A DNA stretch of 4,677 nucleotides, from the IMG/VR virus record IMGVR_UViG_2648501186_000009, one strand, 5' to 3'. Shown here piece by piece: positions 1 to 4,677 of this stretch. Position 1 is the stretch's first letter; every line of letters begins with the position of its first letter. The notes under the pieces were generated by a model. It was not told the DNA's origin. It searched no databases and saw only the letters and a program-made list of their open reading frames with translations. Made by a program: the position numbers and the translations under genes. This stretch comes from a virus (lineage: Duplodnaviria; Heunggongvirae; Uroviricota; Caudoviricetes).

Positions 1-112
1 AACTGAAGTTGCCCTGAAAATGAAATTTTTTTGCACAACCGCAGAACTTTTCCGCAGGGCATCAGTCTTAATTAGTGCCACTGCTTTTCTTTGATGTCCC
101 CATTTTGTGGAG

Positions 113-155
113 CCCATCAACCCCGCCATTTCGGTTCAAGGTTGATGGGTTTTTT
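113..155 (+). terminator. Candidate rho-independent terminator in flanking (presumed host) DNA
   Basis: Perfect 10-bp inverted repeat cccatcaacc (113-122) / ggttgatggg (140-149) followed directly by TTTTTT (150-155). The loop is long (17 nt) but contains an internal ccg/cgg pair. No T-run in the minus-strand orientation, so it would terminate a plus-strand transcript arriving from upstream of the window. Confidence 0.4.
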
Positions 156-213
156 GTTGTCTGAAATTTATGCTGTTTAAAATCATGATGTTAGAAGCAC
201 TGTTTTTTAACGA

Positions 214-235: not shown

Positions 236-454
236 TCAAAGAGAGAGCGCCACCTGTCCTGATTTCATTGGATGCGGCTGAACCGGATTTGACTCTTTTG
301 GCGTTGCAATCGAACGAACAAAAGTTTCATGGGTAACAAAAGTATGGCTGCAGTTAATGTTCTGGCACTGGTTGTAACGCTCTTTGGTCAATGAAGATAC
401 CTGAAAACTGCTGCGAGTATGGGCGGCACTTCCACACAGTGGGCAAATCATCAT
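236..454 (-). CDS. ogr: Ogr/Delta-family zinc-finger late transcription activator
   Basis: The six-frame ORF 236..487 (-) contains MMICPLCGSAAHTRSS...KERYNQCQNINCSHTF, a C-x2-C...C-x4-C zinc-finger arrangement. The ...KERY.QCQN.NCS.TF... core matches what I recall of P2 Ogr. I place the start at the ATG at 454-452, which gives 72 aa (the size I recall for P2 Ogr) and has a GGGAGA Shine-Dalgarno 9 nt upstream. The longer ORF start at 487 has no such support. Confidence 0.85.
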   Translation of the reverse strand: MMICPLCGSAAHTRSSFQVSSLTKERYNQCQNINCSHTFVTHETFVRSIATPKESNPVQPHPMKSGQVALSL

Positions 455-544: not shown

Positions 545-1645
545 TCATTCCATTTCGAAATCATCAATCCTCACTTCAAGCTCCAGACTGGTCGTAAAAC
601 CGTTATCCGGGCTGACGGTATGCGTCAGAGTCGTAATGCTCCATTCCGCATCATCTATCGGCTGTTTAAAGCCACTGACTTTCACTGGCATTTCCGTGTA
701 GAGATCTGCCCGCCCTTCCGCCAGTTGTAGCGAGAATGACGCAACGCCGCGTTGCAGGCGTTCCCACTGCATTTTCGCTGCCCGTTCGGCGTTACTCCGA
801 TTAGCATAGGTGCGATTAAGTACCAGCACGTTTTCATCCGTCCCCACCAGGTAATCGCCCTGCTTCGCTTCCGGCTCTTTCTTCTGCTTCTTAGTCCTGC
901 GCTTACGCTTCACCGTAGTGCTTTCTTTCTTCGCGGGTTCGCGGGTATGCAACCAGCTGGCAATTACGCCCGTGTAAGCTCCGCGATCTGCCAGGGTAAA
1001 GCGGTGACTGTCGCCGTCCTTACGTGTGATAGTGATCACCGGCAGTGGTTTACCGCTGGCGCTTTTACCCTGACCCTGCCGGATGAATAACAGATTGCCA
1101 TTTTTCACCGATGCAATAGCACCGTACTGGCGCGCCAGCCGCATCAGAAAACTGCCGTCACTCTCATTAGTCTGGTCTATATGCTCCACGGGCTTATCCG
1201 ACAGGTCTTTACCCAGTGCCATCTTCAGCTTGTGCCGCGCGGCTATTTCCTTCACCACTTCCCCAACTGTGGTCTTGTGCCACGATTTTTCACGGCGGGT
1301 ATTCAGGGTTTCCCGAAAATCAGCACTTCGCGCCCGGATAGTCAGGCGGTCCGGTGCGCCAGTGTGTTCAATCTCGTCCACCGTGAATGCCCCTTTCGGG
1401 AAAAGCGGCTGCCCCTTCCAGCCCAGCGCCAGCGTAATGACCGCACCACGGCGCGGCAGCACGATTTTTCCGTCAGCGTCGTCCAGCTCCAGATCAAGCT
1501 GGTCCGCTTCAAAGCCCCGGTTATCCGTCAGCGTAAGCCCCATCAGGCGGTTGTCCAGCACAGTGGTTATATCCCTGCCTTCAATACTGATGCTGAATGC
1601 CGGAGTTTTGTTGCCTTTGTTAAGCAGTTCAGAGCTGAAATTCAC
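545..1645 (-). CDS. D: Phage tail protein D (P2 gpD / late control gene D family), apparently full length
   Basis: 366-aa ORF with segments characteristic of gpD as I recall it (TPAFS, LTLTDNRGFEADQLD, LPRRGAV, FTVDE..H.GAPD, IRARSADFR, HIDQ..ESD, ADRGAYTGV, a lysine/arginine-rich linker KRKRRTKKQKKEP, RGVA.FS..LA.GRAD.Y.E.PVKVSGFK, GFTTSLELEV). GTG start at 1645-1643 overlapping the upstream TGA stop (GTGA coupling), with GGGAGGG Shine-Dalgarno 8 nt upstream. Confidence 0.9.
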   Translation of the reverse strand: MNFSSELLNKGNKTPAFSISIEGRDITTVLDNRLMGLTLTDNRGFEADQLDLELDDADGKIVLPRRGAVITLALGWKGQPLFPKGAFTVDEIEHTGAPDRLTIRARSADFRETLNTRREKSWHKTTVGEVVKEIAARHKLKMALGKDLSDKPVEHIDQTNESDGSFLMRLARQYGAIASVKNGNLLFIRQGQGKSASGKPLPVITITRKDGDSHRFTLADRGAYTGVIASWLHTREPAKKESTTVKRKRRTKKQKKEPEAKQGDYLVGTDENVLVLNRTYANRSNAERAAKMQWERLQRGVASFSLQLAEGRADLYTEMPVKVSGFKQPIDDAEWSITTLTHTVSPDNGFTTSLELEVRIDDFEME

Positions 1646-2280
1646 GACAGCAGCCCTCCCACCGTTTTACTGATATCGCTTAAGGCAGACGTTGCCGTGT
1701 CCTGCAGATTATTCAGTTGAGTACTGAGATCACCGAACATATCGGACAGGGATTCATCCACCCGTTTTAGCGACAGGGTGAACTCAATCCTGCGCGGCAT
1801 ACCGTCGCGGAAAAACTCCGTTTTAGTCTGATTCAGTCCCTCAATCACATACATGCCGTAAATCGTGCCGCTACCTTCAATCAGGGGCCATGCTTTCCCC
1901 TGTTCTGCCATCTGCTCCAGTGCCAGCAACGACAGCCTGCCACCTGTTACCGCACCTGCAGCAACACGCCCGATCTCTGCGGTTGCACTCATGACGTAAT
2001 GTGGCAGTTTCTCTTTTGCCACCTCATTAATCGGTACACATGGCAGACAATGAATCTGTGCCAGAAAACCATCTACCAGCGTTGAATCTTCAGTCAGATC
2101 GGTAAGCAGCCAGATTTCTGGTGCGGTTAATAGATGAGGCTGAGCTGGGTTCAGCTTGTTCCGCAGAATCTGCGCATTCATGCCTGCACGTTCTGCCAGT
2201 TGCACCAGATTGTGGCGCAGTGCAAATGCACGACAGGCTTCATCAAAATGTGGATGTTTGGAAACTTGGTAATCAAACAT
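1642..2280 (-). CDS. Chimeric ORF: N-terminal ~110 aa of a phage 186 CII-type regulator fused in frame to the C-terminal ~100 aa of tail protein U (gpU); likely the prophage deletion junction
   Basis: N-terminal part [24 protein letters not shown]...LNPAQPH...[28 protein letters not shown] closely resembles the 186 CII sequence as I recall it. C-terminal part [31 protein letters not shown]...FF.DG.PR.I.FTLSL.RVDESL resembles P2 gpU. It sits directly upstream of D and is translationally coupled to it, as U is in P2. The switch in similarity occurs around residues 110-116 (nt ~1945-1955). Probable start is the ATG at 2280-2278 with an AGAGG Shine-Dalgarno; the ORF track's 2286 start is a TTG. 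Confidence 0.65.
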
Positions 2281-2312
2281 GGTCAATGCCTCTGATGTAT
2301 TTCAGAATCGAA

Positions 2313-2534
2313 CTAATTAAGGTTTAGATTGCATTCTGAAAGCGCATCAACGGTCATGGCTGCTATGTTGATCATCACTTTTTCGCGTTTTTTATCTTTG
2401 CGCAAACGGTGACGGATAAGGCGTCCGTCAGCCAACATGTCATTGATGGTATCGATGGACAGCCCTGTCAGCTCGCTATAGCGCTCAATAGTCACATGAG
2501 GCGTGGTAAGAGTGATTGAAATGTTAGGTCTCAT
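2313..2534 (-). CDS. apl: Apl/Cox-like small DNA-binding regulator (putative excisionase / switch regulator)
   Basis: 73-aa ORF in the first position of the operon divergent from cI and directly upstream of the CII-like gene, i.e. the position of apl in phage 186. Contains a helix-turn-helix-like stretch ([23 protein letters not shown]). ATG at 2534-2532 with GAGGAA Shine-Dalgarno 9 nt upstream. Family assignment rests on position, size and the HTH, not on recalled sequence identity. Confidence 0.55.
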
Positions 2535-2659
2535 GATGCAACATTCCTCGTTTAATGATGATTAATCAGGACGAATACGGATCGTTTGTATTTTGTGAAC
2601 ACCATAAACATACGATCGCACAATGAAATCGTCAAGATAAAAGTTCACTTGGAGTGACC
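2535..2659. promoter_or_regulatory. cI / apl intergenic switch region with candidate operator motifs
   Basis: 125-bp AT-rich region between the divergent cI and apl starts. Contains an inverted repeat ttaat-gatg-attaa (2552-2565) and two related motifs, atacggatcgtttgtat (2575-2591) and acatacgatcgcacaat (2608-2624), both carrying TACG(G)ATCG. The second overlaps the -10 of the candidate pR promoter. Confidence 0.4.
2607..2635 (-). promoter_or_regulatory. Candidate pR-type sigma70 promoter driving apl-cII' (TTGACG-N17-TATGTT on the minus strand)
   Basis: Reverse complement of 2601-2640 reads TTATCTTGACGATTTCATTGTGCGATCGTATGTTTATGGT: -35 TTGACG (plus 2635-2630), 17-nt spacer, -10 TATGTT (2612-2607). 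Predicted start near 2600, about 65 nt upstream of the apl ATG. Confidence 0.5.
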
Positions 2660-3229
2660 ATGAATTTGGAGAAAGGCGGACGAGGCGCTATAGAGCGCAT
2701 GGTAGAAGCTTATGGATTCAAAACTCGACAGGCGTTGTGCGATCATTTAGGAATCTCTAAAAGTACACTCGCCACACGCTACATGCGTGACTCATTCCCA
2801 GCAGAATGGGTAATCCAGTGCGCCCTTGAAACGGGCACCTCGCTTAATTGGCTCACAACCGGACATGGTTCAAAGCAAACTTCAGGTAATACAAATACTA
2901 TGGAAGTTGCTAAATATGTATTATCTGATGGTGCCTTGCGTGAAGACGGTTTTTATATTTTTGATAAGGGATTTCTACCCTCTACGTTTAAAAAACCTTT
3001 TGTCATCACAGATAACAATTCTGAATTTATTTGTGATAAAGAATTTGATGATATACGTGATGGTAAATGGGTAATAAGTATTGATGGCGAAGTAACGATC
3101 CGTGACATTACTCGTTTACCCGGTGGAAGAATCTTCGTCGAGGGTGGAAACAGAGCCTTCGAATGTAAGATAGAAGACATTGAAATAATTGGTAAAATTA
3201 TAAGTTTAACAGTCAAGTATGTTAAATAG
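2660..3229 (+). CDS. cI: Phage 186 CI-type immunity repressor
   Basis: 189 aa from the ATG at 2660 (the ORF track begins at an in-frame GTG at 2654). N-terminal region AYGF...L..H.GIS.S.L..RY.R...P.....QCALETG..L.WL.TG.G and C-terminal region (ITRLPGGRIFVEGGNRAFEC.I.DIE) both resemble the 186 CI repressor as I recall it; size also matches (~190 aa). Divergent from the apl-like gene, as in the 186 switch. GGAG 5 nt upstream of the ATG. Confidence 0.85.
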   Translation: MNLEKGGRGAIERMVEAYGFKTRQALCDHLGISKSTLATRYMRDSFPAEWVIQCALETGTSLNWLTTGHGSKQTSGNTNTMEVAKYVLSDGALREDGFYIFDKGFLPSTFKKPFVITDNNSEFICDKEFDDIRDGKWVISIDGEVTIRDITRLPGGRIFVEGGNRAFECKIEDIEIIGKIISLTVKYVK

Positions 3230-3244
3230 TACCGGGAGGAAACT

Positions 3245-3436
3245 ATGCTTGGTAAGGTATTTTTTGTGGTTTTGTCATGTTCTTTGTTATTAAACCCACT
3301 AACTACCTATGCTAGAAATTATCCCTGCTCAGGGAAAAAGGGAGGTGTTTCTCACTGTACCTCAGATGGCAAATTCGTTTGCAATGATGGAACTATTAGT
3401 AAATCCAAAAAAATCTGTACTAAAAACTCACGATAA
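3245..3436 (+). CDS. Small hypothetical protein (63 aa) with N-terminal signal peptide / hydrophobic segment and 4 cysteines; putative prophage moron
   Basis: ATG at 3245 preceded by GGGAGGA (3234-3240), starting 16 nt after the cI stop. N-terminus [23 protein letters not shown] is signal-peptide-like (possible signal peptidase I site after TYA, or a weak lipobox VLSC). The remainder is lysine-rich with Cys at 28, 38, 46 and 58. AT-rich relative to the D/U genes. No family recognised. Confidence 0.5.
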
Positions 3437-3571
3437 CTTTTGCTTTTATATCTGCGTCTAAAATAAAAATGAGCCGCAGGTTAACCGCAAAAGTTACATG
3501 CTCACATAGCAAAAAGAATAGCCAACTTCATTATGGCTTCAGTGAGATGTATGGTCGTAGGATTTCATACA

Positions 3572-3599
3572 TTGACACTGGTTATACATACAGTAAAAA
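3572..3599 (+). promoter_or_regulatory. Candidate strong sigma70 promoter immediately upstream of int (TTGACA-N16-TAAAAT)
   Basis: Consensus -35 TTGACA at 3572-3577, 16-nt spacer, -10 TAAAAT at 3594-3599. Followed by GGAGGG (3611-3616) and the int ATG at 3625. Confidence 0.5.
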
Positions 3600-3624
3600 T
3601 GCTCTCTACTGGAGGGCATTTTTT

Positions 3625-4677
3625 ATGGCAGTACGAAAACTCACCACAGGGAAATGGCTTTGCGAATGTTACCCCGCCGGACGAAGTGGGCGTCGTGTGC
3701 GTAAACAATTCGCCACCAAAGGCGAAGCTCTGGCTTTTGAGCGTCACACTATGGAAGAAACCGAATCAAAGCCATGGCTGGGCGAATCAGTGGATCGTCG
3801 AACCCTGAAAGACGTGGTTGAGCTATGGTTCAAACTACATGGTAAATCTCTGACTGCTGGGCAGCATGTCTATGACAAATTGCTGCTGATGGTTGGCGCT
3901 CTGGGCAATCCTCTTGCAACCGATCTCACCTCTAAAATGTTTGCCCACTATCGAGATAAACGCCTGACAGGCGAGATCTACTTCAGCGAGAAATGGAAGA
4001 AAGGAGCAAGCCCGGTCACCATTAACCTGGAGCAAAGCTATCTAAGTAGTGTTTTTAGCGAACTATCCCGTCTGGGCGAATGGTCGTATCCGAACCCACT
4101 GGAGAACATGCGAAAATTCACCATCGCAGAAAAAGAGATGGCATGGCTTACCCATGAGCAGATTGTTGAATTACTGGCTGATTGCAAACGTCAGGACCCA
4201 ATTCTAGCACTGGTAGTTAAGATATGCTTAAGCACAGGCGCACGCTGGCGAGAAGCCGTAAATCTTACTCGTTCACAGGTGACCAAATACCGAATTACCT
4301 TTGTAAGAACGAAGGGGAAGAAAAACAGAAGTATCCCTATCAGTAAAGAGCTTTACGAAGAGATCATGGCGCTTGATGGGTTCAATTTCTTCACAGACTG
4401 CTATTTTCAATTTTTATCCGTGATGGAAAAAACGTCTATCGTGCTCCCTCGCGGTCAACTCACACACGTTCTGCGCCATACGTTTGCGGCGCACTTCATG
4501 ATGTCGGGTGGAAACATTCTGGCCTTACAAAAAATTCTCGGACACCACGATATAAAAATGACTATGCGTTACGCACATCTGGCACCGGATCATCTGGAAA
4601 CGGCGCTCCGTTTCAATCCTCTGGCAACGCTGCCAAGTGGCGACAAAGTGGCGGCAGCGGTTGGCATTACCCCGTAA
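3625..4677 (+). CDS. int: Tyrosine site-specific integrase, P2/186 integrase family
   Basis: 350 aa from the ATG at 3625 (GGAGGG Shine-Dalgarno 8 nt upstream). MAVRKLTTGKW...YPAGRSGRRVRKQFATKGEALAFE has the same N-terminal architecture as P2 Int as I recall it. Catalytic-domain motifs are present: LSTGARWREA (Arg), LPRGQLTHVLRHTFAAHF (His-x-x-Arg), GHHDIKMTMRYAHL (Tyr nucleophile). The 52 codons upstream in the ORF track (3469-3624) have no integrase similarity and contain the candidate promoter. The 3' end overlaps the att core copy at 4638-4659; the stop is the last three bases of the window. Confidence 0.9.
   Translation: MAVRKLTTGKWLCECYPAGRSGRRVRKQFATKGEALAFERHTMEETESKPWLGESVDRRTLKDVVELWFKLHGKSLTAGQHVYDKLLLMVGALGNPLATDLTSKMFAHYRDKRLTGEIYFSEKWKKGASPVTINLEQSYLSSVFSELSRLGEWSYPNPLENMRKFTIAEKEMAWLTHEQIVELLADCKRQDPILALVVKICLSTGARWREAVNLTRSQVTKYRITFVRTKGKKNRSIPISKELYEEIMALDGFNFFTDCYFQFLSVMEKTSIVLPRGQLTHVLRHTFAAHFMMSGGNILALQKILGHHDIKMTMRYAHLAPDHLETALRFNPLATLPSGDKVAAAVGITP
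4638..4659. repeat. Direct repeat copy 2 (tggcgacaaagtggcggcagcg); putative att core at the int-proximal prophage junction (attL-like)
   Basis: 21/22 identity to 214-235 in direct orientation. Lies within the last 40 nt of the int coding sequence. Confidence 0.7.

Follow-up and report, generated by a model that had tools for sequence, protein, structure and literature searches.

Temperate phage 186 is a textbook model of the choice between lysis and lysogeny, in which the integrase gene (int) is thought to ride the repressor transcript and the activator CII to have one target promoter. The stop codon of its immunity repressor gene, cI, overlaps the int start, which leaves no intergenic control region, and int is expressed as part of the pL/pE lysogenic transcript. 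186 is described with a single CII-activated promoter (PMC7708051), pE, at which 186 CII recognises a pair of inverted half-sites with centres at -38 and -58, spaced by two turns of the helix (PMC6593788). Here we describe the region upstream of int in a 4,677-nt stretch of viral DNA (IMG/VR record IMGVR_UViG_2648501186_000009; hereafter “the window”), which corresponds to positions 3183862-3188538 of the Escherichia coli ETEC1706 chromosome and holds a deleted 186-type prophage lying between ybjL/rybB and rcdA. We consider it reasonably probable that positions 3547-3624 constitute a self-contained int control module, in which a sigma-70 promoter would be combined with LexA and CII inputs and with a filter against read-through transcription. 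The parts are of known kinds, and their combination ahead of int in 186-type phages is undescribed in the literature searched: for P2/186-type phages, neither a LexA box nor a CII site is reported there at int, and a text search of the literature with the LexA box sequences returned no match.

A sequence-only reading of the window had proposed a near-consensus sigma-70 promoter directly upstream of int. Direct reading bears out its -35 hexamer, its GGAGGG ribosome-binding site and the int ATG (3625-3627), but the -10 hexamer TAAAAT that it named is not in the sequence: positions 3594-3600 read TAAAAAT, offering TAAAAA at a spacing of 16 nt (N16) or AAAAAT at 17 nt (N17), with four matches out of six in either register. 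The promoter scan calls TTGACA-17-AAAAAT (10/12, the -10 being the weak part), and the -10 variants of the relatives (ATAAAT, GAAAAT and TTAAAT) fit the N17 register better. Transcription is predicted to start at 3606-3608, about 7 nt past the -10, giving a leader of about 18 nt, in agreement with the earlier placement some 18-20 nt before the ATG and just 5' of GGAGGG. The site had also been called one of the best promoter matches in the window; it is indeed the second-best, but the window contains 5 promoter-like sites versus 7.1 ± 3.2 in shuffled sequences, and the consensus match by itself is not above chance. A dedicated int promoter is nonetheless very probably present, a judgement that we base on conservation and on the regulatory sites embedded in the promoter rather than on the consensus match. 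Its -35 is kept as TTGAC or TTGAT in nearly all relatives, with TTTACA in the Rahnella/Ewingella loci.

The intact phages 4LV2017, KP12 (Klebsiella) and vB_EcoM-813R9 (Escherichia) share only the int end of the query, and homology to them begins at window position 3547 or 3567, just 5' of the -35; since they share the sequence from there onward, the block belongs to int and not to the remnant. The comparison with the equivalent region of intact relatives, which the sequence-only reading had put forward as a check, thus finds the same block upstream of int there, also in ESSI2_ev129, and the suggestion of a feature evolved in the remnant is refuted. The other suggestion, a coincidental AT-rich match, falls on the conservation of the block together with int in prophages from more than 15 enterobacterial genera. 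That int of P2/186-type phages is generally read off the repressor transcript agrees with the gene order of 186 given above, where no module stands between cI and int, and a dedicated promoter does set this locus apart, no such element being found ahead of 186 int. What does not stand is the picture of a plain strong promoter, as a LexA-type box occupies the spacer, a CII-type operator abuts the -35 and a hairpin covers the ribosome-binding site, three elements that the sequence-only reading had not noted.

The spacer box makes it highly likely, as far as sequence and conservation can tell, that the int promoter is LexA-controlled. A position weight matrix built from 23 E. coli boxes gives the window's box a score within the range of known boxes (12.8-27.7 bits, median 21.3; Table 1); the next best site in the window reaches 6.2 bits and the best of 300 shuffles 18.3 bits, and the LexA pattern occurs once in the window against 0.26 occurrences expected. 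As a control, the matrix recovered the annotated LexA site of 186 p95 (27.9 bits), and it found no site above 11.7 bits in the int-cI-apl-cII region of 186. The core, CTGG-TTATACAT-ACAG, deviates once (T to G) from the gamma-proteobacterial consensus CTGTatatatatACAG (PMC3108266). The box covers about -31 to -12 of the predicted promoter, and relatives mostly have CTGT there rather than CTGG. The same T to G deviation is present in the accepted LexA boxes of ruvAB and colicin E1. Among 18 unique 20-mers from relatives across genera, CTG and ACAG are invariant and the interior is variable; likewise, 80 IMG/VR loci with nearly identical Int resolve into about 32 upstream variants, all of which carry CTG(G/T)-N8-ACAG between the hexamers with varying interior 8 bases. 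The complete genomes of ESSI2_ev129 (30.9 kb) and 4LV2017 (33.5 kb) have exactly two LexA sites of at least 20 bits each, one at int and the other 5' of a small open reading frame (ORF) at the position of 186 tum. In 4LV2017 this small ORF is followed by a DinI-like ORF, and its equivalence to tum is drawn from its position and this neighbour; BLASTP of its product against 186 Tum gave no alignment. The possibility that the LexA box belongs to a promoter firing in the antisense direction was considered and rejected, as the minus strand has no acceptable hexamers and only variable cargo lies downstream on that side. In loci from Photobacterium (L137) and Vibrio (L160), the stretch of about 100 nt upstream of int has strong LexA boxes (20.8 and 25.5 bits) nearer the int ATG, starting 30 and 36 nt before it, with a TAAACAT-TGA motif still further 5'; this Vibrionaceae arrangement may be a differently laid-out version of the same control.

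Adjoining the -35 on its upstream side is an inverted repeat, ATGTATG-N12-CATACAT (3547-3572), which, judged from its sequence and setting, is probably a working CII site. Its half-sites differ from ATGTTTG/CAAACAT by a symmetric change at the central base, and several relatives have the latter form exactly; this is the form of the window's own pE operator, which has the same half-sites and the same N13 as the annotated 186 CII site at 23435-23462. Counted from the predicted start at 3607, the int half-sites are centred at -38 and -57. The pattern ATGTWTG-N12/13-CAWACAT matches the window twice, at pE and at int, and none of 200 shuffles; it also occurs exactly twice, at the same two places, in each complete relative genome, and every sampled lineage has the ATGT(A/T)TG specificity at both sites. 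The int copy of ESSI2_ev129, ATGTTTG-N13-CAAACAT, reproduces both the half-sites and the spacing of its own pE. Furthermore, in 26 upstream contexts differing at more than 12 of 45 positions, with unrelated spacer sequences, the distal half-site (at most one mismatch) lies at N12 or N13 in all but one (18 and 7 contexts, respectively), any other spacing from 5 to 29 being found in at most 2 of the 26. Half-sites kept while spacers are unrelated are the pattern expected for a two-part protein-binding site. All intact relatives carry a cII gene; the window's copy is cut down to 106 aa and joined to U.

The pE operator itself reads ATG TTT GAT TAC CAA GTT TCC AAA CAT on the minus strand, that is, the first nine cII codons, so that its conservation partly reflects coding constraint; the int-side copy lies outside coding sequence, with the exception of ESSI2_ev129, whose cI stop codon falls within the distal half-site. 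Other sources of the inverted repeat were considered and set aside. CI is ruled out as its binder, since phages whose cI genes differ share the conserved repeat, and so is Apl, whose sites are direct repeats (PMC7498355). The attP arm and the arm-type sites of Int do not account for it either, as those lie at 214-235 and 4638-4659, with the att core at 145-171 and past the window end.

The third element is an RNA hairpin with a 13-bp stem in the int leader, whose 5' arm is encoded by the -10 and the predicted start region of the promoter itself. In read-through RNA the stem AAAAAUGCUCUCU / GGAGGGCAUUUUU is predicted to fold with about -14.5 to -16 kcal/mol (z = -3.8); it has a GC-rich core at 3601-3617 and includes a G.U pair valid on the plus strand only, and its 3' arm covers most of a run of six U (3619-3624) directly before the ATG. 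RNAs starting at 3606-3608 are predicted to be unstructured (z about 0), and in the window class the unpaired probability of the ribosome-binding site is 0.20 in read-through RNA versus 0.81 in RNA from the predicted start. Because the 5' arm lies upstream of the predicted start (about 3607), only read-through transcripts would form the hairpin, and we see an even chance that it separates read-through from promoter-born transcripts as these folds suggest. Stable hairpins (z <= -3) are found in the same place in 15 of 19 diverse leaders with unrelated sequences; they start within a few nucleotides of the -10 and pair the Shine-Dalgarno region, and in at least eight lineages arms of unrelated sequence fold in this position. 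Among close relatives there is one compensatory change (GCCCTC/GAGGGC to GTCCTC/GAGGAC), along with several G-C to G-U changes. A U-run is present in leaders of the Escherichia/Klebsiella/Enterobacter type. The KP12 equivalent, AGCCCTC-TGATAT-GAGGGCT followed by T5, is called an intrinsic terminator by the terminator scan; the same scan of the window does not list the hairpin, and our guess is that a stem running into the U-run leaves no T tail for the scan rule. An Rfam scan of the whole window (E <= 1) gave no match in 3400-3700, RybB being its sole match.

Regarding the breadth of the arrangement, a search limited to one genome per species found the composite in 14 of 14 loci with Int at least 70% identical (Escherichia, Enterobacter, Silvania, Raoultella, Klebsiella, Citrobacter, Kluyvera, Dryocola, Serratia and Yersinia) and in 9 loci of the 54-57% identity class (Rahnella, Ewingella, Acerihabitans, Winslowiella, Brenneria, Buttiauxella and one more); in all of these a LexA box of at least 15 bits starts 47-55 nt before the ATG. 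In about 55 other loci from this search the composite is absent, as in 186. Within E. coli, the int-plus-promoter segment is present in 1101 of 5426 complete genomes. Among them, BL21(DE3) carries a defective prophage of the same family (872058-892602, between rcdA and ybjL), which shows no difference from the window in the int promoter, the LexA box and the hairpin. In that prophage cII is truncated as well, and a retron St85 system is found along with a DinI-like gene. The RefSeq int start in BL21(DE3) lies 12 codons past the ATG favoured by the Shine-Dalgarno sequence and by homology, and in the 4LV2017 record the int start is placed 24 codons downstream.

The sequence between cI and this block varies widely, with at least 26 distinct upstream contexts at the cI-int junction. 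The gene after cI is orf63 in the window; in KP12 and 813R9 it encodes a 558-aa PD-Lambda-1 defence protein (E = 7e-120; DUF4041 and T5orf172; 1822-3498 in loci L002 and L003), and in 4LV2017 a 349-aa protein of no assigned function (L004, 1813-2862), followed by a further unannotated stretch. ESSI2_ev129 has no cargo, the control block standing directly after cI. If the module insulates int, the junction can take variable cargo. The slot may represent a hotspot of defence genes in 186-type phages that has so far gone uncharted. The product of orf63 is a small cysteine-rich protein of 63 aa with a hydrophobic N-terminus and five cysteines, without a match in Pfam or PADLOC; no other cargo gene is as common at the cI-int junction of the IMG/VR sample as orf63, which is also found in BL21(DE3).

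In the mechanism that we propose, LexA bound to the box at 3576-3595 would keep int off in an undamaged lysogen, and transcription reading through from cI and the cargo would be terminated by the hairpin or left untranslatable, so that no Int would be made. After infection, CII on the inverted repeat (-38/-57) would have int transcribed for integration, as it acts at pE, and the promoter-born transcripts, lacking the 5' arm, would be translated. Upon DNA damage, LexA cleavage would open the int promoter together with the LexA-controlled, tum-like antirepressor operon, and Int would appear as Apl and CII come on; this second route might serve excision. As the -35 is consensus, the promoter could fire without CII once LexA is gone, and the two inputs would form an either/or gate. 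More tentatively, in a large clade of 186-type phages of the Enterobacterales int might be an autonomous three-layer logic unit, in which CII or LexA cleavage switches the promoter on and the hairpin passes promoter-born transcripts only; its insulation might have allowed a defence and cargo hotspot to arise, and an SOS-inducible integrase might survive in remnants including that of BL21(DE3).

The simplest rivals deny the promoter or its regulation. It is very improbable that there is no promoter at all and that int is expressed by read-through from cI only, as in 186 and P2, the hexamers being a chance AT-rich match. This would agree with the scan, which finds no more sites than in shuffles, but -35 and -10 are conserved across genera, putative operators are embedded in the promoter, and a stable hairpin between the upstream genes and the int ATG, terminator-like in the Escherichia and KP12 classes, buries the ribosome-binding site. 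A plain, unregulated sigma-70 promoter with incidental LexA-like and CII-like motifs would explain the consensus -35, the acceptable spacing and the conservation of the block with int. We nonetheless hold it to be improbable: the invariant spacer positions are the LexA-contact bases CTG and ACAG, the interior being free to vary, the distal half-site keeps its distance in nearly all of the unrelated contexts, and each motif occurs elsewhere once per phage genome of about 30 kb, at a known functional site. Two points weigh against LexA control as proposed. Repression by LexA looks counter-productive when an undamaged cell is lysogenised, so that CII would have to out-compete or join LexA; and the matrix derives from a hand-assembled set of box sequences, though it was validated on 186 p95.

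More serious are the alternatives that accept LexA repression and question one of the other two parts. The inverted repeat might be a relic, a site of another protein or a place where CII binds without effect, which we regard as rather unlikely. The spacing favours this explanation, since N12 (19 bp centre to centre) is found here and in most contexts and every pE site found has N13; the 20 bp typical of pE occur at int in the minority of N13 contexts and in ESSI2_ev129. So do the mismatches, frequently a single one, that the distal half-site bears in 16 of the 26 contexts, the int -35, which is TTGACA against TGGTCA at the window's pE and may make CII unnecessary, promoters of the activator-dependent pE type having a poor -35 and negligible basal activity, and the single CII-activated promoter ascribed to 186. 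It is countered by the int copy of ESSI2_ev129, equal to its own pE in half-sites and spacing, by the strong enrichment of N12/N13 across unrelated spacers, and by the grounds already given against CI and Apl. We therefore keep to a working CII site as the probable reading and, by analogy, liken the element in its working to a CII-activated promoter; we do not claim proven membership of the pE type, as the 19-bp spacing and the strong -35 depart from it. The hairpin is the least secure part of the model. It is possible, although we do not favour it, that it is a mere intrinsic terminator of the cI-cargo operon without a role in int translation, its overlap with the promoter and the ribosome-binding site reflecting compaction. 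The terminator call for the KP12-type hairpin and the U-run of the Escherichia/Klebsiella/Enterobacter-type leaders speak for this, as does the ribosome-binding site of the KP12/Enterobacter-type leaders, which is largely paired even in RNA from the predicted start. The last point also weighs against the proposed filter, in company with the 3 of 19 leaders that have no significant hairpin and the several genera without a U-run; a start inside the 5' arm is a model that fits the window class well and the KP12/Enterobacter class poorly. Against a mere terminator, the hairpins of Serratia, Yersinia, Rahnella, Ewingella and Brenneria pair the ribosome-binding site without any U-run, ESSI2_ev129 has a hairpin over the ribosome-binding site although it has no cargo, and in no case is the beginning of the 5' arm more than a few nucleotides away from the -10.

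Table 1. Features of the window (4,677 nt); promoter, operator and hairpin assignments are predictions.
Feature	Coordinates	Strand	Remarks
RybB small RNA gene	80-158	+	Rfam match, 105 bits
ogr	236-454	-	
D	545-1645	-	
U-cII fusion ORF, 214 aa	1642-2286	-	C-terminal part of U and N-terminal 106 aa of cII, in frame
Truncated cII, 106 aa	1963-2280	-	Retained part 77% identical to 186 CII
pE CII operator, ATGTTTG-N13-CAAACAT	2254-2280	+	Within the first 9 codons of cII (minus strand)
apl/cox-like gene	2313-2534	-	
cI, immunity repressor	2660-3229	+	Upstream gene of the lysogenic transcript; Phage_CI_repr and Phage_CI_C domains
orf63	3245-3436	+	Cargo gene between cI and the int control module, 63 codons
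Distal half-site of CII-type inverted repeat, ATGTATG	3547-3553	+	About -57 from the predicted start
Proximal half-site of CII-type inverted repeat, CATACAT	3566-3572	+	About -38; shares its final base with the -35 (first T)
-35 hexamer, TTGACA	3572-3577	+	Direct reading
Candidate LexA (SOS) box, CACTGGTTATACATACAGTA	3576-3595		Core CTGG-N8-ACAG at 3578-3593; fills the -35/-10 spacer; matrix score 23.3 bits
-10 hexamer, AAAAAT (N17)	3595-3600	+	Alternative register TAAAAA, 3594-3599 (N16)
RNA hairpin, 13-bp stem	3595-3623	+	5' arm 3595-3607, loop 3608-3610, 3' arm 3611-3623
Predicted transcription start	3607	+	± 1 nt; seventh nucleotide after the -10
Shine-Dalgarno sequence of int, GGAGGG	3611-3616	+	Inside the 3' arm of the hairpin
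int, intact tyrosine integrase, 350 aa	3625-4677	+	

The remaining features of the window are those of a remnant (Table 1). Many IMG/VR prophages have an Int that is 100% identical to the one encoded here, and identity to 186 Int is 56%. The in-frame fusion of U and cII is attributed to the deletion that produced the remnant, and its two parts match the Pfam domains Phage_CP76 (cII, residues 12-128) and Phage_P2_GpU (U, residues 112-178). A 27-nt direct repeat, ATGGGTTTTTTGTTGTCTGAAATTTAT (145-171), which we take as the att core, overlaps the 3' terminator of rybB, and a second copy, 89% identical, lies 75-101 bp past the int stop, outside the window (L001, 8752-8778); given this overlap and the copy past int, the phage family appears to have its integration site at the 3' end of rybB and to restore the rybB terminator. 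Another direct repeat, of 22 nt, TGGCGACAAA(A/G)TGGCGGCAGCG, is found at 214-235, just past ogr, and at 4638-4659, in the last int codons. Each copy consists of two tandem units whose complement, TGYCGCCAYTT, resembles the arm-type consensus annotated for 186 Int, YAYCGCCAYTY; the repeats probably represent the arm-type sites that Int uses on either att arm, the second copy lying within the int coding sequence.

Were the proposed model true, a very common group of relatives of 186 (found in 1101 of the 5426 complete E. coli genomes, and in at least 15 genera besides) would use a circuit different from that of the textbook phage, with integrase synthesis coupled directly to CII and to host SOS while being insulated against the lysogenic transcript. 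This would bear on the timing of excision of these prophages, on the build-up of defence genes between cI and int, on the annotation of int genes and on whether remnants keep an SOS-inducible recombinase that could act on related elements. In the remnant studied here, where cII is truncated and the tum region deleted, the LexA input and the hairpin alone would likely still be working.

Among the known systems, 186 pE is the closest to the CII-type part of the module. The activator family is the same, as the identity between the retained CII part and 186 CII indicates (Table 1), and both have 7-bp inverted half-sites, ATGT(T/A)TG / CA(A/T)ACAT, separated by roughly two helical turns, the proximal half-site being near -38. 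They differ in that the module drives int and not cI, has a consensus instead of a poor -35, mostly has N12 instead of N13 and contains a LexA box. 186 itself has neither a LexA box nor a CII site before int. The p95-tum operon of 186 resembles the module in that a LexA box in a phage promoter makes induction an SOS function, and the relatives described here have a box both there and at int; p95, unlike the module, controls the antirepressor and not int, 186 Int being made from the pL transcript.

The pI promoter of phage lambda is likewise a dedicated int promoter under the activator that establishes lysogeny, apart from the repressor transcript. Lambda CII recognises TTGC-N6-TTGC, and pI is not known to have a LexA box. 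Expression of int from read-through is controlled in lambda by sib retroregulation at the 3' end rather than through a hairpin at the 5' end. PMC7708051 states that lambda CII and 186 CII are unrelated proteins. The integrase promoters of integrons share with the module a tyrosine recombinase whose promoter has a gamma-proteobacterial LexA box (CTGT-N8-ACAG), by which recombination is coupled to SOS. Their repression by LexA was reportedly found by Guerin in 2009, and it is also stated in Cambray 2011 (PMC3108266). They differ from the module in belonging to integrons and not to a phage, in their recombinase subfamily and in having neither a phage activator input nor a leader hairpin. Finally, P2 and 186, with int on the repressor transcript (Pc and pL, respectively), have the same integrase family and the same order of repressor and then int; unlike 186, the phages with the module have from 77 to more than 1700 bp between cI and int, often with cargo, and a hairpin that is predicted to block read-through.

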